A stretch of DNA of 64,000 nucleotides from Promethearchaeota archaeon (GCA_016840085.1 JAEOTA010000081.1:128001-192000); one strand, 5' to 3'; positions 28,757 through 57,800 are shown, numbered from the stretch's first letter. Made by a program: numbers and translations. The notes: generated by a model from the letters alone, not told the origin.

Positions 28757-29605
28757 TTGTTGAAAATCCTAAGTTCTGAAAAGAAAATTATATTAGATTC
28801 TAAAAATCACGTCACAAATCAAAAACAAGAGACAGGCTTCAAATTTCAGGAATTGTATGATTATTTAAATCAATATAGGCTCAAAGATGATCAAATTTTG
28901 TTATCTATCGTGTTACCTGCTTATAATGAAGAAAAATCAATTAAAAAAATATTAGAGAGTCTCCCTAATGATAGTTCTATTGAAATAATTGTAATTGACG
29001 ATAATTCATCAGATGGTAGTATTAAAGAAATTCAAAAAGTAAATGATCATAGAAAAATTAAACTATTGAGACATAAGAAGAATCGAGGTTATGGTGGAGC
29101 AATAATCACTGGAATCAAACATGCTAAAGGTGAAGTAATCGTAACTATGGATTCTGATGGTCAACATTCTCCTAAAGATATTATTCAATTAATAAAACCA
29201 ATTTTTGAGCATGAGGTTGATTGTACTATCGGTTCAAGATACTTAGGGGGCAATTATTATGATTTACCATCACTAACGAGACTAGGGGAAGCGATTATAG
29301 AAAAACTGCTTCATATTTTTTTTGGTCAGAAAGTAATGAACAGTCAAAACGGTTTTCGTGCTTTTAATAGAAAATTGGTTCCAATCTTTAAAGATGCAAA
29401 ATATTATGGATTTACTTATGCTACTGAGATGATAATTTTAACGTTAATTAATGGATGTAAAATAAAAGAATGCCCAATTAAAGTGTATGAACGTGCGTAT
29501 GGAGTTTCAAAAATTAGTATGAGAAAGCTGGCCTTTAATCTCCTTATTTGTTTTTTACGATACTATTTTCGAAAGCTTTTAATGCTTTTTACAAGGAAAA
29601 AATAG
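28757..29605 (+). CDS. Glycosyltransferase family 2 (Dol-P-Man synthase-like)
   Basis: VLPAYNEE, IDDNSSDG, NRGYGGA, MDSDGQH, GSRY. Confidence 0.92.
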   Translation: MLKILSSEKKIILDSKNHVTNQKQETGFKFQELYDYLNQYRLKDDQILLSIVLPAYNEEKSIKKILESLPNDSSIEIIVIDDNSSDGSIKEIQKVNDHRKIKLLRHKKNRGYGGAIITGIKHAKGEVIVTMDSDGQHSPKDIIQLIKPIFEHEVDCTIGSRYLGGNYYDLPSLTRLGEAIIEKLLHIFFGQKVMNSQNGFRAFNRKLVPIFKDAKYYGFTYATEMIILTLINGCKIKECPIKVYERAYGVSKISMRKLAFNLLICFLRYYFRKLLMLFTRKK

Positions 29606-29840
29606 AAATAAAACTTTATTTCAATATTTAAAACCATTTTTAAGAAAAACTGCTTATAATCAAACTGAATTTAATAATCAAATTAATTTTTTGAAAGAAA
29701 ATGGTTTTCAGTACTTATTAACAGATCAAACTTTCATATCTGAATACAAAAGTGGAAATTTATTCATTAATAATTTCTACAATATAACATTATATAGATG
29801 TGGTGATTTAAATTTATATTATGCACCATATTTCAATTAA
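29604..29840 (+). pseudogene. Start-less C-terminal remnant of a membrane (GT-C-like) protein
   Basis: Open frame ...NQTEFNNQINFLKENGFQYLLTD...FYNITLYRCGDLNLYYAPYFN*, resembling the soluble tails of the GT-C-like proteins in this window. Confidence 0.45.
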
Positions 29841-29841
29841 A

Positions 29842-30263
29842 TTATGGAGAACGATTGCAGATCTTAACCAAAATATTAATATATATGGATAAATCAGGTA
29901 CCGTTAGTCCAGAAATCCAGAGAAAAAGGCTATATTTTTTGTGATGGGATCATTTGCAGTGAAAAAGAAGGACCTCTTGAGCCTGATCCAAAAAAAATTG
30001 GTATTATTATTGGGGGTTATGATCCTGCAATGATAGATCTAACAATAGCAGAATTATTTAATTATGATTATAAAAAAATACCTCAATTATATAAATTATT
30101 TAATCTTAAAACTAGAAAAATTTCTACTAATAATCCTACAGATTTGAGATTATATTCAAATTATTCTAATTGGAATAAAAAAGATATTAACACCTTAAAT
30201 CATAGAATAAATTTCACGCTTAGTTCTGGATGGATACATCATATTGAAAAAAATAATAGGTAG
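29842..30263 (+). pseudogene. C-terminal remnant of a DUF362-like protein with two frameshifts
   Basis: LWRTIADLN / ILIYMDKSG..QRKRLYF / CDGIICSEKEGPLEPDPKKIG..GYDPAMID..DYKKIP across three frames. Confidence 0.7.
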
Positions 30264-30293
30264 AAAAGAAATATAAAAATATTTTTTTGAAAA

Positions 30294-30495
30294 ATGAAAT
30301 TTAAAAATTTTACCCTTTAATCATCAATATCAATTAAAATGGGCCCAATGGATTACAAGATTCAGAAAAAAAGCACTAATTTTAGATTATGGATGTGGTT
30401 TAGGAAAAGTTGTTTTAGCGGGAAGGAAAATCGGATTAAACATACTTGGAGCAGACATGTTTTTCAGATTACATTGGAACTTATTTTATGATTAA
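30294..30495 (+). pseudogene. N-terminal remnant of a class I SAM methyltransferase
   Basis: ALILDYGCGLGKVVLAGRKIGLNILGADMF. ATG 30294 is out of frame by 1 nt, and the remnant runs into the flippase. Confidence 0.75.
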
Positions 30496-31765
30496 AGTAG
30501 TATTATTAATTATCAATATTATAATTACGTTAGGATTATTAGCAATATTACAAATATGGAGCACTGTATTTATTGTGTTCAGCTTACTTTTACTCTTTTC
30601 TAAAATTTTCTTTTGTATAGGAAATATATTTATAGTTAACCTAAGGATAAAGCTTAAAATTTTCAAGGCTGAAATGCCTAATTTTTTCGTTATAACTGGG
30701 AATAGTCTTTCAATAATTTATCTTGCATTCAATACATCTCATATTTCTGATCCGATATTATACCTAAGCGTTTCAAATTTCATATTTTATACATTTTTTG
30801 TAATAATAATATTTTATCTGTCGAAAAATGAGATTAAAATTAACAACCCTAAGAAAGATTTAGCTCGTAATTACATTAAAGATGCAAAACCTTTAATATT
30901 CTTTTCAATGATATCGATAATAGCAACATACTTAGGAAATCTGATTCTCTATTATTCATTTGGTAATGAGTCTCTTGGTTATTTTAGCAGTGTAAACACA
31001 TATTTAATTCCTGTTTTATTATTAATCTCAGGAAGTATTAGTTCGATATATTTAGCTCTTTTTTCACAAGATTTTGAAAAGGAAGATTTTAATTCGATAA
31101 AAACAACTTTGTACATCATTGAAAATTACTCTTCAATCTTATTCCTGTCTATTATAATAATAATTCTCCTTAATGGAGAGTTAATTATATCAATATTTTT
31201 ACCGAACTTTCTTGAAGCTGTTCCTATTCTTTATATTATGATATTCATGCCCTATCTCATCGCAATCTCTCAACCATATAGCTGGCTCCTAGTCGCAGGA
31301 AAAAAGCAAAAAATTAATGCTCGTGTGAATTCTTTTGTCTCTATCCTCATAATTTTTTTAATGCTTTACTTTATTCCACAAGAATTATTTTTCTTTCAAA
31401 CTTTAGGTTTAGGTGTAATAGGTGATGCTTTAGCTCAAACAATTCCATGGATTTTTTGGACATTTCTATGTCGTTATTATATTAACAAAACTCTTAACAT
31501 AAAATATCAAAAAACAATGATTTTACAGTTTTTTTTAGCAATTCTGACAATAATAATTACATTCTTTATCAAAATCTTTCTTAATGGCATATTTCCTGGA
31601 AATCTCATTTTACTACTAACATTATCATCAATTATAGCAATGGGTATATTTATTGGGTTTTTAATCATTTTTAAAGAACTAAAAAGAGAAGATTTATCAT
31701 TCTTCATTGAAATTTTGAAATTAAAAAGTTACACCGAATCCGTAAAAAAAGAATTTACACGTTAG
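30446..31765 (+). CDS. Oligosaccharide flippase (Wzx/MATE-like), probably N-terminally truncated
   Basis: About 12 hydrophobic segments and LGYFS / LLVAGKKQK motifs. Its TTG start lies inside the methyltransferase remnant. Confidence 0.7.
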   Translation: MEQTCFSDYIGTYFMIKVVLLIINIIITLGLLAILQIWSTVFIVFSLLLLFSKIFFCIGNIFIVNLRIKLKIFKAEMPNFFVITGNSLSIIYLAFNTSHISDPILYLSVSNFIFYTFFVIIIFYLSKNEIKINNPKKDLARNYIKDAKPLIFFSMISIIATYLGNLILYYSFGNESLGYFSSVNTYLIPVLLLISGSISSIYLALFSQDFEKEDFNSIKTTLYIIENYSSILFLSIIIIILLNGELIISIFLPNFLEAVPILYIMIFMPYLIAISQPYSWLLVAGKKQKINARVNSFVSILIIFLMLYFIPQELFFFQTLGLGVIGDALAQTIPWIFWTFLCRYYINKTLNIKYQKTMILQFFLAILTIIITFFIKIFLNGIFPGNLILLLTLSSIIAMGIFIGFLIIFKELKREDLSFFIEILKLKSYTESVKKEFTR

Positions 31766-32391
31766 GGAGCAGTTTTTATTTCAGTTTTAAATGATTTATC
31801 TTCAATAATTTCAACGTAAGAATTTTTTTCTAAATTGTATTTTTTATAATAAAATAATTTTTTTGCTTTTTCTATATTCATAATCAAAGTATCAATCATG
31901 ACATTTCCAACAAAAAAAATTTTAGAGGAATCAATCCCTTCTCTTTTTAAATTAATTTCAGCACTTTTTTCAGTTGTAAATAAAAAATCTGACAACTGAT
32001 CTGTCAGAAGCCGATTTACTTCTTCTGGCATTTTTTGATCAAAGCTTCTTAATCCCGCTTCTACATGTGCTACTTTTATAAATAATTTTTTGGCAACCAA
32101 TGCACATGCTAGTGTAGAATTAACATCTCCTACAACTAAAACTAGTGAAGGTTTATCTTTAAGAAGAAATTCTTCAAATTTTACCATAATTTTCGCAGTT
32201 TAAGTTGCGTGAGAAGCTGAACCAACATTTAAATGTATATCTGGTTCCGGAATTTCAAGATCATTAAAATTTTTTTTTGACATATTATAGTCGTAATGTT
32301 GACCTGTATGAATAAATTTATAAATGATATTTTTTTTTTTTAATTCTTGTATCAAAGGAGCGATTTTAACTAAATAGATTAATTTTTTCAT
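31762..32391 (-). pseudogene. wecB: UDP-N-acetylglucosamine 2-epimerase (WecB/WbpI family) pseudogene
   Basis: HTGQHYD, VGDVNSTLA, HVEAGLRSFD..MPEEVNR, VGNVMID. In-frame TAA at 32202-32200, missing the GxRP N-terminal motif and the C-terminal third. Confidence 0.9.
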
Positions 32392-32652
32392 TGAATTTTG
32401 TCTATTTTTTAAAATTAATAAAAGCTTATTTTAATAACTTAATAATATATTAATATTTAAATGTAAATTCTAAGGATTCATTTTAACCTTAAAAACCTCT
32501 CCCTATCTTTAATAATTTTATCCTAAAGAGTTTTTATATTTATGAGTATAAAATAACTTATAAATATAAACTCAAAAACTTATAGTCTCTCTTTGGAACT
32601 ATAAGATGTAAACTCGGGATTACCCTCTTTATTGCTCAATTTTATAGGATAA

Positions 32653-33897
32653 CTATGAAAGATAAATGAAGTAATAATATAAAATTGCTTCAATTAAATT
32701 AAAGAAAAGTAATCCAATAATTAACATTATCCCACTATTCATAAAGAAACCTAATATTAAAAAAGATAATAATCCCAAGAAGGACAAAAATGAACTAAAA
32801 GCAATTTTTTTATATCTACCTAAAGCTTGGATTTTACCTCCCAAGAAAGCAACTATTACCATTGAAAAAATTAAAAAAATAAAAACACGAATTATATTTT
32901 TTCCATCAGTAGATAAATATAAATTGAAGAATTTGTATAAAATTAATTCTAAAGGGATAAAATCTAAAATGAAAAATATAAGGAAAGTTATAATTATTCC
33001 GACAACAATTAAATAGAACATATTTTTATTTTTTTGAGGTGTTTCTTCAACATTGGAAACAGAGAGGGTGGAAATTAGCAAATTTGAACAAAACATAGCT
33101 ATAAATGAAACGAAAAATAGAGATAAATCAAAAATCTTAAATGAATCAGGTGTCATAATTTTAATTGCAAGAAATACTACTAGCCAATTTCCAATAGAAT
33201 GAAATAAGGTATTAATGCTCAATAAAAATCCTTTTTTAATATTTTTAACAGCATTCAACAAATATTCTTTATTGAGTAATTTCTGTAATGAAAAAAATAG
33301 ATATTTCCAACTTGGTTTAGAAAGAATTGCCCCAATAATAAACGAAGATATAAGACTAAAACAATATAAATAGATAAAGAAATTTAAGTTAAGAAAAATC
33401 TGAATATTAAATATAAATGGAATTATAATTAAACCTTCAATAATTGCTGGTATAGATGTGATTAATGCTGATTTTACAGCATATCCACGGGCTCTTGTAT
33501 TGGCAATAAAAAATTCCATAAATGACCTAAATATTATACTTATCGAAAAAAATAATAATTGGAAAATGGAAAATACTTTTAGATAAAAAAATCCCATCAT
33601 AAATATAAAGATAAAGCCAATAAAATTTGTGATCCAATAAGATAAAGCAAAATTCATTTCAATATCCTTAGAAGTATTATTCAATCTAATTTCTCTAGTT
33701 AGTGGACTATGTAGTGTTAATCCAGCCATAGTTATAGTTAGAGCAAATGTTTGTAATGTTAGAGAAAAAATGGGATAATCTTTTCCAGCTAAGACAATTA
33801 ATGGAATGAATCTGAACGGTATTCTGCCCAAGAAAGAAATTACGGTTCCGATTGAAAGAATAAATGTAAATCTTTTGATAGATCTAATTTTTTTCAT
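32653..33897 (-). CDS. Multi-pass membrane protein, putative polysaccharide flippase
   Basis: 414 aa with about 12 hydrophobic segments in a two-fold MATE-like layout. Glycan-cluster context. Confidence 0.55.
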   Translation of the reverse strand: MKKIRSIKRFTFILSIGTVISFLGRIPFRFIPLIVLAGKDYPIFSLTLQTFALTITMAGLTLHSPLTREIRLNNTSKDIEMNFALSYWITNFIGFIFIFMMGFFYLKVFSIFQLLFFSISIIFRSFMEFFIANTRARGYAVKSALITSIPAIIEGLIIIPFIFNIQIFLNLNFFIYLYCFSLISSFIIGAILSKPSWKYLFFSLQKLLNKEYLLNAVKNIKKGFLLSINTLFHSIGNWLVVFLAIKIMTPDSFKIFDLSLFFVSFIAMFCSNLLISTLSVSNVEETPQKNKNMFYLIVVGIIITFLIFFILDFIPLELILYKFFNLYLSTDGKNIIRVFIFLIFSMVIVAFLGGKIQALGRYKKIAFSSFLSFLGLLSFLILGFFMNSGIMLIIGLLFFNLIEAILYYYFIYLS

Positions 33898-34409
33898 TTA
33901 ATTTACCGAATAAATTCACTGTCTTCAGAATGTTTAATTTACTTTGAATAATAGGATAATACCATAAACGATTGATTAATTAAAAAATATGATATTCTTA
34001 TTGTTTACGTAGTTCACACGTTTTTAAGTGAATTGAAAACTCTATTGAACTTATATTATCCATAAAAAACATTCTTGACTTATTACCACTATTTGAATTT
34101 TCTTATATTTCAGGGTCTTTTTTGATGTTTATTAATGCACGAATATTTAGAATTTGTATGCTTATAGATCAAGATCATATGAGTGATTTCACTTCTCAAA
34201 CTCTTAAATATCGCGAGGATTCCGCTCCAAGCATCCGAAGTAAAGTGAAAGATGATTATAAATTGGTAGAATTATTAATTGGAATAGAAAGGTAAAAATT
34301 TAAGAAATTACTTCATATAAATTTAAGGGTTATTGAGAAATTTAAATACAATAACTGATATTTGCAACTATCAAGAAAATAATACGTAAACTTAGTAAGC
34401 AATATAGAT

Positions 34410-35510
34410 ATGAAATTAAAAAAAATTTTTTTAGTAATAATGGGACTAAATCAGAGTAAAGCTTTAACTTATATTTTACCGATTTTGGAGACTATGAAGA
34501 TATACAAGTTATATGTAATCCGCGATTCACCTTTACTATTAAATGATGAAAGAATTATAAATATCAACCCACCAAAAAGATTTAGAAAGAATCCTCTAAT
34601 TAAATCAATTTATAAATTATTTTTATTGATTGTATTGAATTTCAGATATAAATTTGATTTAATATATGCAGTTCATATGTTTCCACATGGGTTAGTTGGT
34701 TGGTTTATTTCCAAATTATTTAAAATAAAATATGTATTCAACTTAATTGCATATGATGCTGAATTAAGATATTGGGGTAACACTTTTACTTTTATTACGA
34801 AAAGAGTACTTTTAGATGCGGATTACCTTATGATTGAAGGTTTTTTTGATCAAGATCAAATTAATTCTAAAAATAAGCTACTCAGTTTCTTTAAACAATT
34901 GAATATTGATTTTCATAAATTATTACCTGGTTATACAGCAGTTTTTCCAGAAAAATTTTTTCCGATAAAAAAAGAGATAAAATGGGATATAATTACAATT
35001 ACTAGATTAAATCAAATTAAGCGGATTGACTTATTTATTGAAATAGTCCAAAATCTATTGGATAATATTGACATAAATTGTGCTATAATTGGAGATGGTC
35101 CGTTATTAAAAAAATTAAAAAAACAAGTTGAAAATAAAGGATTAAAAAATAAGATTTGTTTTTTAGGACGAATACCTAATAATAAATTAAATCAATTTTA
35201 TAATAGTGCAAAGATTTTTTTATTAACATCTGAAAATGAAGGATTACCCGCAACTCTAGTAGAAGCAATGTTAACTAAAACTTGTCCAATAACAACAGAT
35301 GTAGGCGCGATTCCAAATCTTATTAAAGATGGCTATAATGGATTTTTATACTCAATAAATAATTTAAAAAATGCTGAAAAAATAATTATAAAATGCTTAA
35401 AAAATAATAATTTGCGAAAAACTATTGGAAATAATGGTAGAAAACGAGCATTAGAAGTATCCGCATGGAATCGTATCTCTACATGGAATAGAATAATACA
35501 AAGTATTTAA
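34410..35510 (+). CDS. Glycosyltransferase family 4
   Basis: ITRLNQIKRID, IGDGP, LTSENEGLPATLVEAM, TDVGAI. Confidence 0.92.
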   Translation: MKLKKIFLVIMGLNQSKALTYILPILETMKIYKLYVIRDSPLLLNDERIININPPKRFRKNPLIKSIYKLFLLIVLNFRYKFDLIYAVHMFPHGLVGWFISKLFKIKYVFNLIAYDAELRYWGNTFTFITKRVLLDADYLMIEGFFDQDQINSKNKLLSFFKQLNIDFHKLLPGYTAVFPEKFFPIKKEIKWDIITITRLNQIKRIDLFIEIVQNLLDNIDINCAIIGDGPLLKKLKKQVENKGLKNKICFLGRIPNNKLNQFYNSAKIFLLTSENEGLPATLVEAMLTKTCPITTDVGAIPNLIKDGYNGFLYSINNLKNAEKIIIKCLKNNNLRKTIGNNGRKRALEVSAWNRISTWNRIIQSI

Positions 35511-35721
35511 TATGGATTTTTTCTATACATTAAATTAGTTGTTTTGTTTCTAAAAGAAAAAGGGCTCGATATATAATTCGAGAATTTAATATGAAAGGAA
35601 AATAGAAATGCGATAAAGCATTTTTTTTTTATTAATCTTTAATCAAATTCTGCTATTATCTATTTATAAAATTTAATAAAGCTTATAATATTTTATCAAT
35701 TTATCTTCAGTAGAAAAGAGA

Positions 35722-36825
35722 TTGGGATTATTTTCAATGACTATAAAGTTAAGTATTACTGGAGATATATTTCTTTCGGATCAACCACATATGGTTGGCA
35801 TTGGGGTTAGATCTTGTACTAAAAAAACCAAAATTAGAGATTATCCTTTTCATAAAATTAAAAACCATTTAAAAAGATCAGATATAGTTTTTGGTAATTT
35901 AGAATCGAGTTTTAGCAATAAAAGGAATAAATTTATACTTAAACCATTTTTAATTGATATAAAGAGTGCTATGTCCTTGAAAAATGCAAATTATAATATT
36001 TTAAATGTTGCAAATAATCATATTATGGAAAATGGATTTGAAGGCTTTAATTTCACTAAAAAAGTTTTGAATAGCTTAAACATTAAACTCTTAGGACAAA
36101 AAGACAGTAAATGTGGGTATTATACTAAACCAATTATTCTGATAAAAGATAATAAAAAAATATCGTTTTTAGGCTATAGTTTAAAAGCTGATGATTTTGG
36201 GAAAAATGTTTTATACTCTATTTCGGATGAAAAAATGATCATTGAAGATATAAAAAGGATTAAGGAGAAGGAGAACCCCAATATTATTATAATATCTCTT
36301 CATTGGGGTGATGAATACATTAGCATCCCGCATCCCGAAAATGTTAAAATTGCCAGAAGATTTATTGATACAGGTGCTAATTTAATTATTGGACATCATT
36401 CTCATGTTTTAGCTCCTATTGAAAAATATAAAAATTCATTTATAATATATAGTCTTGGGAATTTTGTTTTTGATATGACATATCCATTTACTAACTATGG
36501 ACTATTGGTTGATCTAAGCATATCGGGAGAAAATAATGAATTATTTTTAAAACCCAATCTTATAGTGATTCAAAAAAATTGGATTCCAAAAATCCTAAAA
36601 TTAAATTTTAAAAAGATAATATATCCATCAAGAAAAATAGATGAAATCACAAATAATATTGATAAATATCTCTATATTCTATCTGTAAATAGACAAAACT
36701 ATAGAAAATCTTTTTATAAACTATTAATTAAAAATTTAATAAGAAATCCTTATTACTTAATTCCATTTCTTCTTAGGCTTATTAAACTTAGGAGATATCA
36801 TATAATTAAAAAAAAAAAGTGGTAA
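35722..36825 (+). CDS. CapA family (PGA_cap) metallophosphoesterase-like protein
   Basis: TGDI, GNLES, ANNHIME, SLHWGDE, IGHHSHV, YSLGNFVFD. Confidence 0.9.
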   Translation: MGLFSMTIKLSITGDIFLSDQPHMVGIGVRSCTKKTKIRDYPFHKIKNHLKRSDIVFGNLESSFSNKRNKFILKPFLIDIKSAMSLKNANYNILNVANNHIMENGFEGFNFTKKVLNSLNIKLLGQKDSKCGYYTKPIILIKDNKKISFLGYSLKADDFGKNVLYSISDEKMIIEDIKRIKEKENPNIIIISLHWGDEYISIPHPENVKIARRFIDTGANLIIGHHSHVLAPIEKYKNSFIIYSLGNFVFDMTYPFTNYGLLVDLSISGENNELFLKPNLIVIQKNWIPKILKLNFKKIIYPSRKIDEITNNIDKYLYILSVNRQNYRKSFYKLLIKNLIRNPYYLIPFLLRLIKLRRYHIIKKKKW

Positions 36826-36856
36826 AATTATAGACTATCGTAAATTCTTATTTAAT

Positions 36857-38170
36857 TTGGGACATTTTCTAAATTATCCTTTTTTCTTTAAATTGTATAA
36901 CTGGTTAGATAATAACCAGTATAAGAAAAAACAAATAATGCTTAAGCAACAATCATTTTATTTAAAACAGATAGTCAACTTTTGTTATGAAAATGTAAAA
37001 TTTTATCGGAATAACCTTAAGGCTTTAAATCTATTGCCTAAAGATATTAAATTTATTGAAGATCTTTCAAAACTTCCAATTATCGATAAGAAAACAATAA
37101 ACCAAAATTATAATGATTTTTTTCCAAAAAATCTGAATAACATAAAATATATTGAAAGATCTACGGGAGGTACTACAGGTACTCCAATGAGATATCGTAT
37201 TACCAAATACGAGCGTAATTTAGCAGGCGCATTAACCTATCGACGCTGGAAAAGGGCAAATTATAAAATTGGAGATAGAATCTTAATTATTGGAGGTTCT
37301 TCAATTATACCTAATAAAAATACTTATTTAAAAGATTTAATAACTCGAACTATAAGAAATGCTTTTTATTTAGATTCTTTTAATTTGTCTGAGAAGATTC
37401 TTAGAAATGAGATCGATAGAATAAATAAATTTCAACCCAAATTTATATATGGTTATCCTTCTGCAATTGAATTTTTTGGTAGATGGTTATATAATAATGG
37501 ATATAGTTTAAATGGAATTAGAGGGATAGTAACAACCTCTGAAACATTATATCAACATATTAGGGTGAAAATTGAAAATTATTACGGAATTTCAGTTTTT
37601 GATAATTATGGTTTAAATGATGGCGGAATCTCTGCAGGTGAATGTAAAAAGAAAGAAGGTCTTCACATTGATACCGAAAGAAGTATTCTAGACGTAGTTG
37701 ATAACAATAATAATAATATTATTGGAGAAGAGGGTGAGATAATCGCAACCTCTCTTTTCAATTATGCTATGCCTTTTATAAGATATCGTACCGGAGATGT
37801 TGGAATTCTATCACCCACAACATACGAATGTGAATGTGGAATAAATTCTCCGATTCTTGAATCAATTAAAGGTAGGACTGTTGATATATTGATAACTCCA
37901 GAAGGTAATTTTGTTCATGGATGGTATTTTTTATATATTTTTTGGAATTATTGTAAAGGAATCATTTCTTACAAAATTGAACAGAATAATAAAGAGGAGA
38001 TTAATATTTATATTGTCCCAGAAAAAGAATCAGATTATAAAAATACAATTAAAAAAATTGAATTAGCTGTTAAAGCGAGATTTCCAACATGGAAATTGAA
38101 TTTTATAATTAATGAAAAAATTAGTTATAACAATAAAAGAAAATTCATTATAAATAACCTATTAAATTAG
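36857..38170 (+). CDS. Phenylacetate-CoA ligase family (CapK-like) adenylate-forming enzyme
   Basis: STGGTTGTP, GYPS, TTSE, YGLNDGG, AMPFIRYRTGD, IKGR. Confidence 0.88.
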   Translation: MGHFLNYPFFFKLYNWLDNNQYKKKQIMLKQQSFYLKQIVNFCYENVKFYRNNLKALNLLPKDIKFIEDLSKLPIIDKKTINQNYNDFFPKNLNNIKYIERSTGGTTGTPMRYRITKYERNLAGALTYRRWKRANYKIGDRILIIGGSSIIPNKNTYLKDLITRTIRNAFYLDSFNLSEKILRNEIDRINKFQPKFIYGYPSAIEFFGRWLYNNGYSLNGIRGIVTTSETLYQHIRVKIENYYGISVFDNYGLNDGGISAGECKKKEGLHIDTERSILDVVDNNNNNIIGEEGEIIATSLFNYAMPFIRYRTGDVGILSPTTYECECGINSPILESIKGRTVDILITPEGNFVHGWYFLYIFWNYCKGIISYKIEQNNKEEINIYIVPEKESDYKNTIKKIELAVKARFPTWKLNFIINEKISYNNKRKFIINNLLN

Positions 38171-48322: not shown

Positions 48323-48519
48323 AATATGATAGATCTATCTAAAAAAGACAATAAATTAAGCATAAATATAAATAAACAATATTATGAATAATTCTTATAG
48401 TTGAATTGTATTATACTGTTAACTATCAGCGAGGAAGCAATGAAATCCTTAAAAATAGAATTGAAATAAACACAGATAGAATAAATATTAAATATCAGAT
48501 AACTTAAAATTAATAATAT

Positions 48520-48834
48520 TTATCGGGATTCTTCTTTTGTTTTATTGTGCTTTTTTAAATAATCTTCTAGAATCTTTTCATGTTTTCCTGATGTTTTACT
48601 CAAATTACTGTATGGTGCTTTTTTCAATAAAAATATTAAAGTCCAAAGAAATTCTCTTTCAAAAAGAAGAATAATAATCCATAATGGAATAAATGGGATT
48701 AAAAAAAATAATGATATTTTATTAAATATTAATAGAAGAATTGAACCGATAAAGATTAAACCGAGAATAAATGTCAACCCTCCAATTATGACATTAACAA
48801 TTATTCTAACTATTAAACTCGCCATTTTTATCAT
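48520..48834 (-). CDS. Small hypothetical membrane protein
   Basis: 104 aa with two hydrophobic segments, 13 nt downstream of a GT2. Confidence 0.6.
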   Translation of the reverse strand: MIKMASLIVRIIVNVIIGGLTFILGLIFIGSILLLIFNKISLFFLIPFIPLWIIILLFEREFLWTLIFLLKKAPYSNLSKTSGKHEKILEDYLKKHNKTKEESR

Positions 48835-48847
48835 TTCTCTAATAATT

Positions 48848-49606
48848 TTAGAGTTTTTTATCTTTTCGTTTATTTCTAATCTTTCTTTGATGGATTATTC
48901 TCCACTTCCATCCTTTTAATATCATTAAAAAATTACGCTTTATATAGCGAGAAATAACAATTTTTGATTGCTTTTCTCCTTCGAGATATATCGATCTTCT
49001 TGGAACATCCTTAATACGAAATCCATGAGCTGCAATTTTTATAATGAAATCAGATACATAGCCATATCCGTCCCAAAAAAGATCCCAATCAACAGTTTCA
49101 ATTACTTTCCTTGAGATAGCAGTAAATCCATCTTGTGTATCGAATATATTATGAACACCTGATCCTATTCTTGTTAGAATCGAAAGAAAAATATTTCCAA
49201 AATATCTTTTGTTAGGCATTACTTTTTTAGCATCGACTAGGAATCGATTTCCCTTTGTATAATCAGCTTCATCATTCACAATTGGGTCTAATAATAAAGG
49301 CAATTGTTCTAAATCAAATTGATGATCACCACCTACTACTGCTACAATATCTATATTGTGTCGTAAAGATGTCATATAACCTATTTTGATTGCATTTCCG
49401 ACGCCTTGATTTTTAGTTAATTTTATTAGTTTTATTTTTGGATTTTTTAATCTTTCGACTAAATTTGATGTCAAATCTTTGCTCCCATCATCTACTACAA
49501 ATATTTTATCAACAAAATCGGGAATTCCCATGATGGTTGGAATTATTAACCGCTCCTCATTATAAGCAGGGATAGTTATTGAAATTTTCTTTCCTCTATA
49601 AACCAA
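48848..49606 (-). CDS. Glycosyltransferase family 2 (Dol-P-Man synthase-like)
   Basis: IPAYNEE, VDDGSKD, NQGVG, GGDHQFD, KGNRF, DTQDGF. Confidence 0.9.
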   Translation of the reverse strand: MVYRGKKISITIPAYNEERLIIPTIMGIPDFVDKIFVVDDGSKDLTSNLVERLKNPKIKLIKLTKNQGVGNAIKIGYMTSLRHNIDIVAVVGGDHQFDLEQLPLLLDPIVNDEADYTKGNRFLVDAKKVMPNKRYFGNIFLSILTRIGSGVHNIFDTQDGFTAISRKVIETVDWDLFWDGYGYVSDFIIKIAAHGFRIKDVPRRSIYLEGEKQSKIVISRYIKRNFLMILKGWKWRIIHQRKIRNKRKDKKL

Positions 49607-49902
49607 ATAAAAAGACCTTGGATATTGTTTAAATTTATAAAGATTTACAATATTTAAAAATTTTTTTGACCTCCTAGATTATTTTTGGCTTTTAATATTG
49701 ACTGAAGTTACACTTAAAAAATGATAAATTTCTAAAAGTTATTGAATTTACTCAAGATTCTTAATCTTTGGAAAAAAATCTTTTCTTTTTCACATATAAT
49801 TCAGTAAATAATTGATTGAGAATTTAAGAAAAATTTTTTTATGTATATATTCAAAAATCATAGATAATGAAATAGAAAATTTTTAGAAAATCCTTTAAAC
49901 AA

Positions 49903-51501
49903 CTACTTCAACTGATATTTATAAAGATTCCTTATATCTCTTATTTTTTTTCCTGGATTCCCTGTAACAATCGCATAATCCTCCACATTTTTAACAACAA
50001 CTGTACCAGCACCAATTAAAGCATGTTTTCCAATTATTAAACCAGATAAAATTGTAGAATTTGCTCCAATTTTTGCATATTTTTTTATAGTTGGACCAAC
50101 AAGATTCCTTTTTACACCGATAGATTTAGGATATTTTGCATTGCATAAAACCACATTTGGACCTAACCAGCAATCATGCTTCAGAATTGAAAATTCAGGA
50201 ACAAAGCAATTAGAGTGAATACGAACATTATCTTCAATGATGATATGATGTTCTATATTAGAATGGGACCCAATACTAACATTATTTCCAATTTTATTAT
50301 TTTCTCTGATAGTAACAAAATGACCAGTTTGAAAATTATCTCCAATCTCATTTCGAGGATAAATAATAGTTGGTTGTCTTATATTGGAATTTATGCCAAT
50401 TTTATAATCTTGCTTAAACTTTTTGTATTCTTCTGCTTTAATTTTTTCTTTTTTTATTATTTGGGAACTTATTTCTTTCCTTTTTATACTAATACTTTTA
50501 TCTTCTTGAATAAATACGGGCAATTTAGCTATTGCTTTGATTTCTTCTTTGAGATTTAAACGTTCTCTCCGCGTGTATGTGTCTTTTGGAAAAACATTAG
50601 CTTTAAAATCAGGCAATTCAAAATTTTTAATAGCTCTTTTACTAATTTGATTGAAATTGAATTTACTTTCTAGCGATTGCCTTCGATGTGTCATTTTTTT
50701 AAAAATATAATGCAGGATACAAGAAGAGATTGATCTGAGAATCCTTATAAGATTGACATGAGAAGTGCCATATTGTCGGGGATTGGCAGAAACAGGAGTT
50801 TCAACAATCTTTAATTGATTAAATGCAGCTGTAAATAATAATTCGGTGGAAAAGCCCCTTCCAGTATTTCGTATATTCCCTAAAATTTTCTTGATGTCTT
50901 TTTTAAAGGCTCTAAAACCACATTGGTTATCATGTACTCTTTGAAGATATAACATTCTAAAGAATACTCTTATAAAATATTCACCTACACGAGCATAGAG
51001 CGGATATTTATAATTAAACTTACCTAAATATCGTGATCCAACAACAAGATCAGCTTGATTATTAATAATTGGCTTAGCTAAATAAGGAATTTCTTCAGGA
51101 TTATGTTGTCCATCCGAATCCATTGTTATTATAATATCTCCTGTGGCGTGCTTAAATCCAGTTAATAATGCTGCTCCATAACCTTGATTTTTTTCATGGC
51201 GAATGAGTTTAATTTTTCTATTTGTAATTTCTTTAATTCTTTCCACGCTATTATCAGTAGAGCCATCATCGACTATAACAATTTCATATAAACGGTGGTG
51301 TGGTATTCGGTCAATTACACCCTTAATTGAATTTTCCTCATTATAAAGAGGAATAACAATAGAAGTTAGGATTTTTTTTCCTTTTTGAACTAAATTTTCA
51401 CTAGAACGAAAATCTTCAACCTTATCAATTCTCGACTTCTCTAAATATAAATTTTCAAGAGTCATTTTCTGTTTATAAAAATTGCTATTACTAAAAAACA
51501 T
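49903..51501 (-). CDS. Fusion of a GT2 (Dol-P-Man synthase-like) and a hexapeptide-repeat N-acetyltransferase (WbpD-like)
   Basis: N-terminal IPLYNEE, VDDGSTD, MDSDGQH, GSRY. C-terminal left-handed beta-helix repeats, [26 protein letters not shown]. Confidence 0.88.
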
Positions 51502-51969
51502 TTGAATGATTTCTGAATATTATTATCAAAATAAGCTTTTAAATTGTCGAATAATTTCACTGAATTATAACTTTTTTTCTTCTTTAACATAATTCTATTA
51601 TTTTTTTCAGACAATATGCGTTAGTTTCCTTTCTTTTTTGCCTAGTATTTTTTAATATTACTATTATATAAAAATTTATTTGAATTGTACATTTTTATAG
51701 AAAATTCTAAAATGAATTTAACAAAAAGATTCGAAATATGATTTATTATTTTAAAGCATAATCATCAATAATGTTGTTTATTAGAATACCAGTTATAAAG
51801 CCATATATATGAAAGTGAAGGTATTGAGGTTTCGTAGAGCGTTGAAGAAGCAACACTCTATGAATTAAAAATATTGGATAAAAAGTCCATTATGAAAACA
51901 CTTGAGCTAAGTAAGATTTTCCTCTAAAAAACGATTTATGACACTTTAACAATGTATATAATTAGATAT

Positions 51970-53895
51970 TCAAAATATTTTCCATACTAATAAATGTTGA
52001 GTTGAGAAAACAGGTTCAAATAATTCCGACTGCTGTAAAGATTGGATTAAGGTGCAATTATTTATACTTCCTGACTGAAAAGTGTCGTTAATAGAAATAA
52101 TATATTGCACATTATACGAGACCAAAACCTCAAAATCTGTCCCCTCTCTTAAATCTAATGCTCTAATAGAATTCAATAGCTCTATTATAGGATCCATTTC
52201 ATTAAAAGTGAAAAGACCGAACCTAAACAATTCGGATAAGGAAAATTTTGCATTCTCATGAACATAATTGGGTGGGATAATACCATAATATAAGGGTATT
52301 CCAATTATTCTAGAACTTCTGCTAAAAGTGGGTAAAAAACCAACCCCTCCAATTCTATCAGAGAGATAAACATCAGTAACATATATTAATCCCTCAATAT
52401 CTTCATTTTGGAAATATTCAATAATTTCGATTTCTTCATTGGTTAAATATCTATTTTCCCATGGATAGGGGCTGGTAGTGAGAGCATGTCTGCCTGCCAC
52501 TACATATAATTCCGAAAATGTTAAAAATGAAATTGTTAATGCTATAATCCAGATCTCTTTTTTCATTTTATGGGGATCAAAAGAAGCGCGTGAAAAAGTT
52601 AGATTATTAAAATTATAAATTAAAAAAACAAACAAAAATAAGATCAAAGAAACAAGCGAGAATAAAAATACATTCCAAAATACAATATTTGAATAATTTT
52701 CATACCTTAGAAAGTAATAACTCACTACTAAAAATAAGAGAAGTATCGGAAAAACCCAATCTAATTTTTTAGAAAAGCTTGAAATAAACTTTTTAATATA
52801 AATTAGACCTTGGACTGAAAAAATTACTATTATAGGCAAAAATATGACTATCGCATAAAAGAAATTAAAAATCGTAAAAAAAAAAGGTATAAGAAAAAGT
52901 TGTAAATAATAAAAATTGTCAATAAATTCATGATGGGAATTGTCAAGTTGTGCATTCTTTTTTTTAGATGTTTTAAAGGCATTAGAATTTTTAAATGTAA
53001 AAGTTAATTTATACAGGGTTATTATTACTCCAATCGGAAAAAAAAGAGAAATTAATCCTATTCTAAATCCAAAATACTCGATCAAAAATGTACTTATTTC
53101 GAGAACAGTTGCATTAACACCAAAATCAGATCTAGATTCAACATCAAAAAATTCTAATCCATAGAAAAAAGCGATAATGCTTAGCGGAAGAAGTAAAAAT
53201 ACAGTAAGATGATGTAATTTTTTATGTTTTCGAATAAAAACCGTAAAAATCATGAATATTATCGTTATAACTGTACCCATCCAGAGTCTATGCGCTAACG
53301 CACCAACCAAGAGAAGTAAAAACATAAGAATCGTTGTTTCAAATTTATTTTGATTATCTGTAGTTATTATCTTTAAATTTAGATTTAAAAGAGCTATCAT
53401 GACAATAGTTATAATAATTCTGGTACCTACGTACATGGCGGTATTACCAATTATGTTCGTAGATAATAAAATAGCAGCTACAAATATAAATCGACTCCAT
53501 TCTTCTTCGAATAGTCTATTTGCGAGATTTCGAGAGCTTTTATAGATAATTAGGATAAGTATAATATTGAACGTTAATATCGCTTCAGCTAGACCAAATG
53601 TACCGAATGAAATAAAGTCCAGAAGACTTATTAAAAATGCAAGGAACATAGGAACGCCTATCGCTCGATGAGAAAAGGGGAAATATCCAAAGTAGGAAAA
53701 GGGGGAGATTAACCACGTATTATTAGAAAATAAAGCCCCCTCTCTAAGAGCATTTGCCATCCATATCACTTGAAATGCGTCTACTCCATATATGCGTGGA
53801 TAATGGATTATTTGGATTACAATTGCCACTAAAACAAGGACAAGGTAATAAAGTCTGTTTTTTTTTATAATTGCACTCATAAAATTATAGCTCAT
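51970..53895 (-). CDS. Multi-pass membrane protein, GT-C-like
   Basis: YGVDAFQVIW acidic loop after the first TM, about 13 hydrophobic segments, soluble C-terminal domain beginning EEIEIIEYF. Confidence 0.55.
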   Translation of the reverse strand: MSYNFMSAIIKKNRLYYLVLVLVAIVIQIIHYPRIYGVDAFQVIWMANALREGALFSNNTWLISPFSYFGYFPFSHRAIGVPMFLAFLISLLDFISFGTFGLAEAILTFNIILILIIYKSSRNLANRLFEEEWSRFIFVAAILLSTNIIGNTAMYVGTRIIITIVMIALLNLNLKIITTDNQNKFETTILMFLLLLVGALAHRLWMGTVITIIFMIFTVFIRKHKKLHHLTVFLLLPLSIIAFFYGLEFFDVESRSDFGVNATVLEISTFLIEYFGFRIGLISLFFPIGVIITLYKLTFTFKNSNAFKTSKKKNAQLDNSHHEFIDNFYYLQLFLIPFFFTIFNFFYAIVIFLPIIVIFSVQGLIYIKKFISSFSKKLDWVFPILLLFLVVSYYFLRYENYSNIVFWNVFLFSLVSLILFLFVFLIYNFNNLTFSRASFDPHKMKKEIWIIALTISFLTFSELYVVAGRHALTTSPYPWENRYLTNEEIEIIEYFQNEDIEGLIYVTDVYLSDRIGGVGFLPTFSRSSRIIGIPLYYGIIPPNYVHENAKFSLSELFRFGLFTFNEMDPIIELLNSIRALDLREGTDFEVLVSYNVQYIISINDTFQSGSINNCTLIQSLQQSELFEPVFSTQHLLVWKIF

Positions 53896-53932
53896 TTTTT
53901 CTTATCTCTTACAGACTTTTTTAAAGACAATT

Positions 53933-55771
53933 TCAAGCCAGACGATTTAATTTTTTTTTGATGAAAAAAGTTGCTTTAATAATAATATATGATACAACAG
54001 CAATTATGAAAATTATAGCTGAAATTAAAAATAAATCCGGAAAGTCCATTTCTTCGTTCATCTTTTCATAAATAGGACCTAGTCCATTATCTTCTAAAGA
54101 ATTTCCCGAAATTTTATTGAACTTACTTTCTTCTAAATATATACCATATTTAAAATTCTTATTAGCGATATTGTAAGTTAAAGTGTTATTATTGGAATAC
54201 CATAAATGAAAACCATGTTGATCATTATTATTAGCGGTGTTGTTAGTTATTGTATTATTATTAGAATAGCTGAGAAAAAAACCATTGAGATTACCCGTTG
54301 CAGTATTATTTATTAAGATATTATTATTGGAAGAACCTAGGTAAACCCCGAGATAAGTGTTATCCTTTATCTCATTACTCATCAAGGAATTATTATAGGA
54401 TGAATCGAGGGATAACCCATGCCTATTATTCGTTATGTTATTGAAAGTCAAAGTATTGAAATTGCTTGAGTTGATTGTGATTCCATTAATATTGCCAATT
54501 GCAGTATTGTCCTCTAAGCTGTTATTATAGGAATCTTTAAGAAGGAAACCATATATATTATTCTTCGCGATATTATTTTCCAATTTTCCGTGTGTCACAT
54601 TCTCTAAATAAAAACCAAAATAATTATTTAAAAAACCATTACTCACTCTTACATTTCTGATTTTAAAATAGATATCCGTGTTTTGAATATGAACTCCGTG
54701 TCCCACTGAAGCAACAATTTCATAATTTTCGATAATATAGGGATTGTTGTAAGTTCCATCACCAGAATAGTTATAAGCAACCGCTTTTTGATAAAAATCA
54801 GAATTTCCATCAACATGAATAGTATAGCTAACAATAACTTCGATTATATTCGAATCTAGTTCTTCATATTTATTAATTGCTTTTACAAAAAATTCATAAG
54901 TTCCTATAGCTAAATTATGGATGGTGTAATCTGTTGTTGTTAATCTTTCAGCTATAATTTCATTATTTTGATATAATGTATAACTATCAGCATACTTCGA
55001 AACTGTCCAGGTTAGTGTGAATGATCCATCCTCATCGAAGCCATCGACGTCTGAAAATAAAGTAAATGGTTGCGGACCGCGACCGCATATATTATCTGAA
55101 ATATTATTCCATATGCAATTTTTCTCATAAATGCAATCTATACCATTACGCAATAAAACATTTTCCGAAATTGTATTATTATTGCTATTATCTAAAAATA
55201 TACCGTATTCAATATTATCATTAGCAGTATTATTAATTAGGGAATTATTTGTGGAATACCAGATCCGAAATCCATGTAAATTGTCATTTGCAATATTACC
55301 TTCCAAGGTGTTATTATCGGAATCTTTGAAGAGGAAACTAGCGATATTATTATTAGCAGTATTGTTTATCAATTTTCCGTTAGTTATATTATTGAAATAA
55401 AATCCATGTTTATAGTTTGAAGCACCATTGCTTATGATCACATTTTTGATAATGAAATAGAGATCCGTGTTTCGAATCTCGATTCCGTGATCGTCGAAGG
55501 AGGTACTGATAATATAATTTTCAATAATGTAAGGGTTACTGAGAGTTCCATCGCCATCCCAACCCTCGCTACTTGCTTTAACAGTAAACATATTATTACC
55601 ATCAATAAAAATAGGATTATGATTTTCCGATATTTTAAGATATTCATTATTTTTCTTGTTTCTATTTGTTTGTAATATTTCGTGAGTATTGAAATAGAGT
55701 ATTGACACTATGAAAAATATACAGAAGATGAGAGTTAGTATTAAAACGTTTTTCTTTCTATTACTCATCAT
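53933..55771 (-). CDS. Membrane-anchored surface protein with two NosD/CASH right-handed beta-helix domains flanking an FN3-like domain
   Basis: N-terminal signal/TM, two GDGT-x2-NPYIIENY starts, many SNNNT/GI-x-L repeats, LTWT..ADSYTLY..YEFFVKAIN, C-terminal TM with basic tail. Confidence 0.85.
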   Translation of the reverse strand: MMSNRKKNVLILTLIFCIFFIVSILYFNTHEILQTNRNKKNNEYLKISENHNPIFIDGNNMFTVKASSEGWDGDGTLSNPYIIENYIISTSFDDHGIEIRNTDLYFIIKNVIISNGASNYKHGFYFNNITNGKLINNTANNNIASFLFKDSDNNTLEGNIANDNLHGFRIWYSTNNSLINNTANDNIEYGIFLDNSNNNTISENVLLRNGIDCIYEKNCIWNNISDNICGRGPQPFTLFSDVDGFDEDGSFTLTWTVSKYADSYTLYQNNEIIAERLTTTDYTIHNLAIGTYEFFVKAINKYEELDSNIIEVIVSYTIHVDGNSDFYQKAVAYNYSGDGTYNNPYIIENYEIVASVGHGVHIQNTDIYFKIRNVRVSNGFLNNYFGFYLENVTHGKLENNIAKNNIYGFLLKDSYNNSLEDNTAIGNINGITINSSNFNTLTFNNITNNRHGLSLDSSYNNSLMSNEIKDNTYLGVYLGSSNNNILINNTATGNLNGFFLSYSNNNTITNNTANNNDQHGFHLWYSNNNTLTYNIANKNFKYGIYLEESKFNKISGNSLEDNGLGPIYEKMNEEMDFPDLFLISAIIFIIAVVSYIIIKATFFIKKKLNRLA

Positions 55772-56339
55772 TTTTCATATTGGTTTTATTATTTAATTTT
55801 TATTATCTACCAATAGATAAGGAACTGTTATTTAAATTTTATATTTTATTAGCTTTTTAGATCCATTTTATGAAGGCTAAATAAGCTCTTAATTGAATGA
55901 ACATATTTGATTATAATTAAAAATTTTGAAATTATATAATAGGATTTTTTAAATAAATTCTCATTTTGCTATAACTTTGGATTTTTTTTCGCTTTTGAGA
56001 ACAAGATTTCTAGCAATTAATAAATTTTTAGTTAAATTATGATTTATTACGTTAATTTTTATCTCCTTTTCATAAAATTTAATTATATATGCTCGAATCT
56101 TTAGATATATTGTCAATTATAGCAAATCCAATCTCCTTTAAGTTATTCAAAGACTTTATTGAATCTAAATGTCATTTAAGGAATTTTGCTTTATTATATA
56201 AGGAAAAATTTACTAATTTTTTAGGATTTGTCATTTATACTGTTTAAAAGGCTCTAATATCTCAAAAAGGATTTTGTTATGTTCCTAAAAGTTTTACAAA
56301 AAGATATTTAACATAAAAATATTTTGAAAATTAACTCAA

Positions 56340-56833
56340 TCCAAAAGCAAGAATTCAATACCTTTATTATTTTTATTTTAATTTTTCATTATTTACTTCA
56401 TTTTTCTATGAATCAAGAGCAATAGACACCTTTTGTTTAAAAAGACGAGAAGTAAGTTCTACACGGTGGTATTATCATTTCTGAATTTGGATGGGGGTCG
56501 ACTTTTATTTACTATGATTATCCGTTTGGAGATAACCATAAAACACTACCATTAAAATCAATTCATTTTTTTTTAGATGTAAATTCTTCTACATTACATC
56601 CCTCCTTACATTATCCGAATGGTATTAATATATTGAAGAAATTGAAGGCAGAATATAATACTGATGTTATAATAATCTTGCCGGGATATTACTATTCACT
56701 ACTTAGTTGGAGTTTCTTTGATCAGCTTAATGAAGAGGAAAAAGAAGTATATTATACGCTCGAATATTTAAATCGAATTTTTTCAGCTAAGACAGAAGCA
56801 GGTGAAGAAACACCTTATTATTGGGTTATATGA
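56340..56833 (+). pseudogene. C-terminal remnant of a membrane (GT-C-like) protein
   Basis: Start-less open frame 56456-56833 (HGGIIISEFGWGSTFIYYDYP...LNRIFSAK..PYYWVI*), preceded in another frame by FSLFTSFFYESRAID..KRREVSS. Confidence 0.55.
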
Positions 56834-57017
56834 ATAAATTTATTGATTAAAAGAATAATAATTCAGGAATTTTCGTAAAAGGGCAAATTATAAGGATACT
56901 TGTAATGAAAGAAAGTTTTGATATCATTAAATGTTAATAAATTTTGTAAATATTTTTGAGATGAGAGTTTATTGATTTATTATAGTGTGAAACGCACAAA
57001 AATTAAGCGTGTTTTAA

Positions 57018-57526
57018 ATGGATAGGCAAAGAATATTAAGAGAAGCCCAAAAATTGCCTTAAAATTTTCATTTTGGATGGTTTCAGGGAACATTGCTCAC
57101 TTATATGGACATATGTATGAAATACCTGAAAAAAAATATGAATTAGTAATAAAATTTGGCGAGAATTTCCCAAATCCCCCTCCTAAACTAGTGGATCATG
57201 ATGAAATAAAGAGAGTATTAGGGGATTTTCAATTAAAAAATATAACAAATTGGGCTCCTGAGAAAGCTGTAATTGATATTATTGAAGAACTTAATATGAA
57301 AATTCAAGAAACATTAGAAATGCCAAAAGAAGAGTTGATTTCACCAAAAACCGAGGAATATATCACTCCTGATTTAAATGCATATCCCCCAGATGCCGAG
57401 TTGAATAAATATCTTACTCCCTCTTATACTGAAAATGAATTTTTCTAAGATAAACCGCCAGAGATTTCTGATCTTCATTTAACTGAAAATTCCATAAATG
57501 AATCAAAAACTATACCACGAGAGTGA
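57018..57526 (+). pseudogene. Degenerate copy of the 5' ~510 nt of the UBC-like/RING gene at 61544
   Basis: MDRQRILREAQK, 1-nt deletion, FSFWMVSGNIAHLYG...EEYITPDLN, TAA in place of TAT at 57446-57448. Similarity ends near 57526. Confidence 0.93.
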
Positions 57527-57800
57527 AAGTGTATTAGTAATTTTAGATTCAGATCATTCAAAGAATCATGTTCTTACAGAATTAAAAATCTATAGTAAGA
57601 TTGTGACTATAGGTAGTTATATCATTGTAGAAGATTTAAATATTAATGGAGATCCCATTTTACCTTAATTTGGTCCGAGTCCTATGGAAGCTATCAAGGA
57701 ATTTTTGAAAGATAATAATAATTTTATAATTGATAAATCCAAGGAAAAATTTTTTATAACCTTCTTTTCTCCAAATGGTTATCTTAAAAGAATAAAATAA
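57525..57800 (+). pseudogene. C-terminal remnant of a CmcI family (cephalosporin hydroxylase / rhamnosyl O-methyltransferase-like) protein
   Basis: VLVILDSDHSKNHVLTELKIYSKIVTIGSYIIVED..P*FGPSPMEAIKEFL..SPNGYLKRIK*, with an in-frame stop at 57666-57668. Confidence 0.85.

Follow-up and report, generated by a model that had tools for sequence, protein, structure and literature searches.

The subject of this study is a glycan island in the genome of an uncultured Promethearchaeota, a Loki-type Asgard archaeon, and in particular the gene remnants that lie between its intact genes. The window, by which we mean the whole stretch of DNA that was analysed, comprises 64,000 nt and corresponds to C78:128001-192000, C78 being a contig of the source genome, G000. 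This genome is a metagenome-assembled genome (MAG) of 4.68 Mb in 89 contigs, with a guanine plus cytosine (GC) content of 29.5% and a completeness of 98.8%. The region analysed spans 29604-58063, and all positions below are window positions unless a contig is named. Genes of the region encode glycosyltransferases, sugar-nucleotide enzymes and polytopic membrane proteins, and remnants of genes were found in 6 of its 13 gaps. To its right lie an rmlA-rmlC-rmlB-rmlD (rmlACBD) cassette, a UBC/RWD-domain gene that we refer to as RING, and ileS.

The remnants were sought by converting every non-coding gap into stop-to-stop peptides, which were compared with Pfam and with the long open reading frames (ORFs) of G000 itself and, beyond G000, with the corresponding loci in ten congeners and 68 loci from metagenomes. 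The DNA of the region was also compared with the whole of G000 by blastn. Congener and other relative genomes carry G0xx labels, with one genome per species, and metagenome loci or contigs carry Lxxx labels; the 68 metagenome loci were those returned by a metagenome scan with the RING protein, none of them above 69% RING identity. An alternative genetic code was considered and rejected: table 4, in which TGA is read as sense, joined no fragments, and the standard code therefore applies.

These searches identified 11 robust remnants, recognised by Pfam, DNA or protein similarity, and four weak ones. They are given here in order, together with one sequence that had been proposed as a further fragment:

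29607-29837, + strand: tail of a ~840-aa polytopic membrane protein, last ~74 codons and native stop (blastp)
29880-30260, + strand: C-terminal end of DUF362, weak (PF04015, E = 0.0018, profile positions 159-199 of 200)
30298-30444, + strand: N-terminal S-adenosylmethionine-binding part of a methyltransferase, weak (PF13489, E = 0.0019, profile positions 1-42 of 164)
30446-31765, + strand: 439-aa polytopic membrane ORF, the 'truncated flippase', weak (at least 7 hydrophobic stretches, no Pfam match)
31762-32430, - strand: wecB (UDP-GlcNAc 2-epimerase) remnant, codons 1-214 of 366 (Pfam Epimerase_2)
38175-38363, + strand: C-terminal remnant of an ATP-binding cassette (ABC) transporter ATPase (paralogue and weak DrrA1-3_C match)
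38456-38634, - strand: rmlB (dTDP-glucose 4,6-dehydratase) fragment, codons ~250-314 of 343
42877-44007, - strand: GT4 gene, short at the C-terminus, weak (Pfam)
44109-44575, + strand: diverged copy of the DUF354 upstream region and codons 1-143, with a frame break
44577-44636, + strand: 60-bp degT-type aminotransferase piece (82% identity to 46605-46664 in the intact DegT gene)
44637-44940, + strand: sequence inside a 110-aa ORF, candidate 'GT2 fragment'
46046-46121, + strand: 76-bp oxidoreductase piece, a copy of nt ~80-155 of the GFO/IDH/MocA gene
56082-56171, - strand: 5' piece of a 339-aa gene, codons ~25-52 (28 codons; 71% and 67% identity to the G016 and G008 proteins)
56335-56830, + strand: tail of a 761/765-aa membrane protein with 12-13 transmembrane segments, codons ~590-765, one frame break
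57015-57516, + strand: decayed 5' copy of the UBC/RWD gene RING, upstream 3 nt and codons 1-~170
57498-57797, + strand: 3' remnant of a CmcI-type methyltransferase, profile positions 105-206 of 206, one in-frame TAA

The initial annotation of this DNA had described at least 14 remnants as filling the gaps between intact genes, and its count was essentially right. Nine of the pieces that it listed are robust, to which our analyses added the degT piece and the 339-aa piece; four others (DUF362, methyltransferase, flippase and GT4) are weak, and its 'GT2 fragment' was not verified, as the candidate sequence at 44637-44940 matched nothing in Pfam and, by blastp, nothing in G000, in its relatives or at the metagenome loci. 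Recognisable remnants make up ~3.8 of the ~8.0 kb of non-coding DNA (~47%), and the observation that they abut with little spacer was confirmed, as they often lie within 1-20 bp of each other. Sequence comparisons of the kind proposed in that annotation recovered the fragments, of which six, rather than five, are diverged copies of intact genes in the window.

The intact genes among which the remnants lie, or with which they are compared, were assigned by Pfam:

28757-29605: GT2
34410-35510: GT4
35722-36825: PGA_cap-like
45017-46027: DUF354
46209-47315: DegT aminotransferase
47315-48322: GFO/IDH/MocA oxidoreductase
48848-49606: GT2
49903-51501: GT2 fused to a hexapeptide acyltransferase
53933-55771: NosD/beta-helix protein
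58064-61288, + strand: rmlA-rmlC-rmlB-rmlD cassette (NTP_transferase, dTDP_sugar_isom, GDP_Man_Dehyd/Epimerase, RmlD_sub_bind)
61544-63196, + strand: UBC/RWD-domain gene, RING (UQ_con 7e-11, RWD 1.8e-6)
from 63596: ileS, next after the RING gene

Six more ORFs of the region (414-641 aa) had no Pfam match, and five of these encode polytopic membrane proteins.

At the left of the region, the ~840-aa tail starts 1 nt after the stop codon of the GT2 gene at 28757-29605. It has 41-44% identity to residues 769-842 of 842 in G016 and G023 proteins and to residues 790-852 of 854 in an L090 protein, and it has no paralogue in G000. The Pfam score of the DUF362 tail is under the curated cut-off and its paralogue matches are weak. 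The methyltransferase head directly abuts the ORF at 30446-31765, whose residues 128-436 align to residues 193-488 of 492-aa homologues with 28% identity; in comparison with these homologues the ORF is possibly ~60 codons short at its 5' end. The wecB remnant has Epimerase_2 matches of 2.1e-39 and 2.4e-9, contains one frame break and has lost its 3' part by deletion. It shares 75% nt identity over 554 bp with the intact wecB at C78:199707-200807. Of the smaller pieces, the ABC ATPase tail corresponds to residues ~250-305 of the 305-residue ATPase encoded intact at 20553-21470, with which it shares 44-46% aa identity (and 78% nt identity over 65 bp). The rmlB fragment and the intact rmlB at 59347-60378 are 79% identical in nt and 62% in aa sequence, with a ratio of nonsynonymous to synonymous substitution rates (dN/dS) of 0.19. 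In the GT4 gene at 42877-44007, the Glycos_transf_1 match ends at profile position 152 of 172, and alignments to homologues leave 37-48 C-terminal subject residues unmatched. The protein may thus end ~35-45 residues short of its homologues, and the gene is probably the 'truncated GT4' of the initial annotation.

The segment from 44.1 to 48.3 kb has the order DUF354 remnant (head), degT piece, unassigned DNA, intact DUF354, oxidoreductase piece, intact degT and intact oxidoreductase. The DUF354 remnant has 76% nt identity over 484 bp to 44964-45445 and, over codons 46-143, 77% aa identity with a dN/dS of 0.12; the degT piece is directly joined to it. The oxidoreductase piece, which sits between the intact DUF354 and degT genes, has 92% identity to 47394-47469, including a 42-nt exact run. 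This arrangement is most simply read as three successive copies of one operon that have been trimmed by deletion to a single working operon. None of 40 relatives yielded a DUF354 gene. In addition to the intact copy and the 76%-identical remnant in G000, metagenomes contain an allelic series of the gene at 69-88% identity.

At the right end, from 56.3 to 63.2 kb, the order is 765-type tail, RING 5' copy, CmcI 3' half, rmlACBD and intact RING. The 765-type tail has 61-64% identity to proteins of G016, L078 and L080 that are encoded directly upstream of RING, but only 45% identity to both intact 761-aa paralogues in G000 (C78:75075-77360 and C78:100665-102950; a homologue lies at L018:15894-18191). 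In G016 and G008 the 339-aa gene is the divergent neighbor of the 765-aa gene. The match of the 765-type tail to genes upstream of RING, together with the presence of the 339-aa piece, indicates that an ancestor of G000 had a G016-like order, 339-aa gene (-), 765-aa gene (+), RING (+), which has since been mostly deleted.

The RING copy has 77% nt identity over 519 bp to 61541-62058 and is disrupted by a frameshift and by two stops, the first of them a nonsense mutation at codon 15. The CmcI remnant is joined to it mid-gene without a spacer, the two overlapping by at most 10 bp. This remnant (Pfam RMNT_CmcI, 2.2e-16 and 1.4e-8) is the sole match to CmcI that G000 contains, and it has 59-68% identity to intact genes in G015 and G021.

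Comparison of the 5' segment shared by the RING genes showed the remnant to have 81.6% nt identity to the allele of G024, the closest sampled species (RING 74% aa identity), and 79.0% to the intact G000 copy, whereas the intact G000 copy and the G024 allele share 75.4%. In a maximum-likelihood tree the remnant grouped with the G024 allele and not with the intact copy, with support of 98/95, while the 3' part of the intact RING was sister to G024. These data suggest, but do not prove, a foreign origin for one of the two RING copies, as the approximately unbiased (AU) test did not reject remnant and intact copy as sisters (p 0.168). Import from related strains, as claimed in the initial annotation, is thus suggested by the tree but not by the AU test, nor by the wecB tree, which is a polytomy.

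The two membrane-protein tails had been labelled 'GT-C', and we examined this label for the 761/765-aa protein, which consists of 12-13 hydrophobic segments and a ~150-aa tail. No Pfam match was found even at E 5, and there was no sequence match in the PDB. An AlphaFold model based on 8 sequences had a predicted local distance difference test (pLDDT) score of 41 and was unusable. The nearest language-model clusters were DUF6541, PMT-like and DUF2206 (score 0.97), which provide a lead only. The protein may be an unclassified GT-C-like transferase.

Several other features of the window were recorded. A 579-aa polytopic membrane-protein gene without a Pfam match (40687-42426, - strand) has 37% GC and 0.347 GC at third codon positions (z = +3.2 against 3219 genome genes) in surroundings of ~25% GC, and it looks like a recent import from a donor of higher GC. 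The 153-aa rmlC-like protein (58865-59326, + strand) matches dTDP_sugar_isom (2e-14) and Polysacc_synt_C (2e-11) over the same residues. A 104-aa hydrophobic ORF (48520-48834, - strand), located 13 bp downstream of the gene for a 252-aa GT2, found no homologue in the sets that were searched; it may encode either a small membrane protein or a membrane tail that has become separated from this GT2. To the left of the region, 23863-26073 and 26350-28557 (+ strand) encode tandem 736- and 735-aa proteins with 11 transmembrane segments, no Pfam match, 75% aa identity and a dN/dS of 0.23. A 43%-identical homologue of this pair adjoins a RING fragment in L098.

Comparisons of remnants with their intact counterparts gave dN/dS values of 0.07-0.43, the lowest of these for the N-terminal piece of the wecB remnant, and synonymous divergence (dS) from 0.26 to >2, which is saturation; intact-intact controls had dN/dS values of 0.23-0.30. 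Each remnant has only 1-3 disruptions. Because the dN/dS values resemble those of the intact-intact controls and the disruptions are few, the divergence would mostly have accrued while both genes were functional, with truncation coming later.

The lesions in the remnants are also relevant to whether the assembly itself produced them. A contig that stitched together co-occurring strains or species would have artefactual fragments and junctions, and there are grounds for raising this explanation, as the MAG is in 89 contigs with 7.6% estimated contamination, many relatives coexist in similar sediment metagenomes, and variable islands are notoriously difficult to assemble. However, the nonsense codons and frameshifts are typical of decaying pseudogenes. 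The exact runs shared by remnants and intact genes are only 12-42 nt long and are not at the fragment borders, which makes k-mer mis-joins unlikely. In addition, when the whole bin was searched by blastn, neither RING nor any other part of the region was seen a second time on a different contig, the only off-contig matches being three weak ones of 72-155 bp with 70-76% identity, on C53 and C69. Assemblies made independently in other projects likewise contain comparable remnants at the homologous locus. An assembly chimera is therefore improbable. The metagenome scan returned no contig of the same strain and no locus above 69% RING identity.

A different explanation is that the fragments arose purely by internal turnover, through tandem duplication and deletion of the genome's own genes with no import. 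Six fragments do have intact partners 1-22 kb away on the same contig, and the tandem 736/735-aa pair demonstrates that duplication happens here; the failure of the AU test to reject a sister relationship of the RING 5' copies and the wecB polytomy are also compatible with this explanation. Set against it is the divergence already described, since dS values of 0.26 to >2 with low dN/dS would require both copies to have stayed functional for a very long period before a recent truncation. The RING remnant, moreover, is nearer to the G024 allele than the intact 5' end is, and four pieces (CmcI, the ~840-aa tail, the 765-type tail and the 339-aa piece) are without an intact copy in G000. The failure to find DUF354 in the 40 relatives and an island content that is almost wholly unlike that of the sister species also count against internal turnover, which we consider an unlikely source of the fragments.

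To place the abundance of remnants in context, we used a measure that counts, per 28.2-kb segment, only those remnants that can be recognised through a paralogue in G000. For the region this count is 8, compared with a genome mean of 1.67 and a median of 1; the 99th percentile is 7, the region ties the genome maximum of 8, and only 0.3% of genome segments reach its count. The initial annotation had regarded an equal density of remnants throughout the genome as fatal to its proposal, and this was not what was observed. The contrast was weaker when expressed as gap bp under paralogue matches (17% in the region and 8.7% genome-wide), since ORF calling takes the largest remnants out of the gaps and mis-called starts add to the background. 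Among congeners, islands of type A have 0-1 remnants and those of type B have 3-5.

The absence of visible mobile elements, also noted initially, was upheld for the families searched. There was no match in the window to PF00589 (integrase), PF07282 (TnpB) or PF01609 (DDE_Tnp_1), other transposase families not having been searched, and no Pfam transposase among the ORFs of the region. The closest TnpB-like matches lie outside it, at C78:57195 and C78:225084. High-identity terminal repeats are absent from the window, in which the sole long repeats are diverged gene copies, and no tRNA or Rfam family was found in it. The locus thus has no integrase, tRNA or terminal repeats of the kind that define a classical integrative element.

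The island lies between a conserved block, which ends in a 761-aa gene, and the RING gene next to ileS. RING was found in 20 of the 24 congeners searched and was always the right border of the glycan genes. Both the left block (C78:50844-75082) and RING-ileS are conserved in G002, G003, G004, G007, G011 and G015, in which 10-21 kb of different glycan genes lie between block and RING. In G000 the block ends at C78:75082 and RING starts at C78:189544, an interval of 114 kb, of which the region is the right-hand 28 kb. The locus is arranged differently in G016, G008 and G023, where it includes rml and ABC-transporter genes, and in G016 and G008 the 339-aa and 765-aa genes are directly upstream of RING. 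The gene upstream of RING varied in the 68 metagenome loci and included rmlD, rmlB, GT2, wecB, the 765-aa gene, an epimerase and ABC remnants. Overall, island content differed among the 10 congeners and 68 metagenome loci, and the 761/765-aa protein gene marks a border of the island across the genus. The locus is a glycan island of fixed position and variable content; the comparison upstream of ileS, as proposed in the initial annotation, bore out a fixed position with species-specific glycan genes.

Even G024 had no detectable shared DNA with 29604-44000. Its only long matches to 44001-61540 were the RING 5' end and part of one GT2, the others being weak and ~50-260 bp in length. Of the contigs of the two closest relatives, G024:C38 ends 8 nt upstream of RING, and L115 (CAYSZJ010000231.1) ends inside RING. 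Over all loci, an enrichment of contig breaks upstream of RING relative to downstream was considered as a sign of population-level hypervariability and rejected (medians of 1554 and 1762 bp, respectively, Wilcoxon p 0.92).

Remnants were also observed at this locus in other populations. The rmlACBD cassette adjoins RING or a RING fragment in L031, L034, L036, L039 and L098, and in L098 a 36-codon RING fragment (L098:4027-4134) directly follows rmlD. Further internal or 3' fragments of RING are at L097:10001-10180, L068:3908-3982, L070:3861-3935 and L087:2163-2306. In these contigs of other populations the fragments lie away from the intact copy or are duplicated downstream of one, and RING seems to be a recurrent recombination border. 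Pieces of the 765-type tail are present in L094, L078 and G019, and the 765-aa gene is split in G008. A wrecked ABC transporter lies directly upstream of RING in L050:4915-5597, L057:6755-7437 and L081:223-905, which come from different projects. It consists of ATPase codons 5-45 only and a frame-broken permease, and it is a scar common to these populations.

Such recurrence raises the question of whether the fragments are kept for a function, as silent donor cassettes, selected landing pads, or small regulatory ORFs or RNAs. The ABC remnants of L050, L057 and L081, the 765-tail pieces that recur next to RING and the RING pieces that travel with the rml cassette (L098) could all be cited in favor of this. 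Yet the fragments derive from many unrelated enzyme genes and not from one variable surface protein, they contain stops and frameshifts, and the window is devoid of Rfam families and tRNAs. Their recurrence is explicable by the shared descent of close populations. Retention for a function is, in our view, very improbable.

Based on these findings, we think it likely that the locus is a flexible surface-glycan island of replacement and additive type, with recombination and deletion scars. In this view glycan cassettes, entire or in part (rmlACBD, DUF354-degT-oxidoreductase, ABC transporter, wecB and large membrane transferase-like genes), would repeatedly enter by recombination. These events would be anchored in genes common to the cassettes or in the flanks, and sometimes would combine one-sided homology with an illegitimate join. 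Redundant or displaced genes would then be trimmed by deletion, and heads, tails and internal pieces would be left abutting between the intact genes as non-functional scars. For instance, if a cmcI-rml-RING segment had entered by homologous crossing-over within RING, with its left end joined illegitimately, the order seen from 56.3 to 63.2 kb would result. How recombination proceeded, whether each piece is foreign and any selective driver, such as viruses or partners, are matters that we infer.

A number of observations weigh against this explanation. We infer homology-anchored and illegitimate joining from geometry alone, and no donor was found for any junction. The DUF354/degT junction is the only one with both parents at hand, and it has only a TATG-type match, which is not meaningful at 26% GC and lends no support to the joining through short homologies claimed in the initial annotation. 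No allele closer to the DUF354 remnant than the intact copy was found among 5.8 billion proteins searched. The AU test and the wecB polytomy, as well as the estimated contamination of the MAG, belong here too. With respect to the remnants, the other 7 of the 13 gaps (174-512 bp) had nothing recognisable, including in Pfam searches of the gap peptides, and other hotspots in G000, mostly of multi-copy families, reach similar counts.

A more specific proposal, which we regard as possible but doubtful, is that glycan diversification in Asgard archaea proceeds by additive capture. One-sided homology in border genes (UBC/RWD-RING, the 761/765-aa gene, rml) would be coupled to illegitimate joining at the other end. 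Old anchors would persist as remnants that could be reused as landing pads, giving rise to a super-island of 114 kb, 5-10x the size of those of congeners. If true, additive capture would give a first mechanistic picture of gene flow at a surface locus in those prokaryotes that are most closely related to eukaryotes.

In many prokaryotes strains differ mainly in their surface-glycan islands, which are believed to influence recognition by viruses or partners. Little is known of gene exchange in Asgard archaea, for which this locus provides a clear record in the form of a fixed hotspot flanked by a conserved block and a gene resembling those of the ubiquitin system, many datable scars and an allelic 5' copy of this flank gene. 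There is also a consequence for annotation, as the short ORFs at 31762-32187, 44279-44611 and 57077-57448 are pieces of pseudogenes.

Replacement flexible genomic islands for surface glycans, which have border recombination and no mobile elements, have been described in bacteria and one archaeon (Lopez-Perez, Martin-Cuadrado, Rodriguez-Valera 2014, PMC4033161). The locus resembles these in its fixed position between conserved flanks, its unrelated yet functionally equivalent glycan sets, the absence of the integrase and transposase genes searched for, and a GC content below that of the genome. Exchange of such islands, to which we liken the locus, is attributed to recombination in the conserved borders. 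Those cases were shown between strains of >96% average nucleotide identity, with near-identical exchanged clusters and peaks of single-nucleotide polymorphisms at the borders, whereas the comparisons here are with species-level relatives only. The locus also differs in being very large (114 kb), in looking additive as well as replacing, and in the unusual density of its remnants. Islands of this kind include the archaeal cell-wall island of Haloquadratum walsbyi (PMC4535781), which also involves mobile elements.

O-antigen clusters contain gene remnants degraded by serial deletions, such as wzy in Salmonella groups B1 and D1 (Reeves et al. 2013, PMC3715488). As in those O-antigen and capsule remnants, truncated pieces of glycan genes between intact genes record earlier forms of the cluster. 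The O-antigen cases often have an insertion sequence or H-repeat at the junctions, however, and none was seen here; they differ further from the locus in its Asgard host and in its much higher number of remnants per kb.

In naturally transformable bacteria, homology-facilitated illegitimate recombination combines one homologous anchor with an illegitimate join. The geometry of 57015-63196 fits one anchor in RING and one such join, although to our knowledge this process has not been demonstrated in Asgard archaea. In its position, its variable but equivalent content and its lack of the mobile genes searched for, the locus agrees with the islands described in other prokaryotes. The phenomenon itself is well known in bacteria and other archaea, and the locus extends it to a new lineage, of which it is an unusually dense example.

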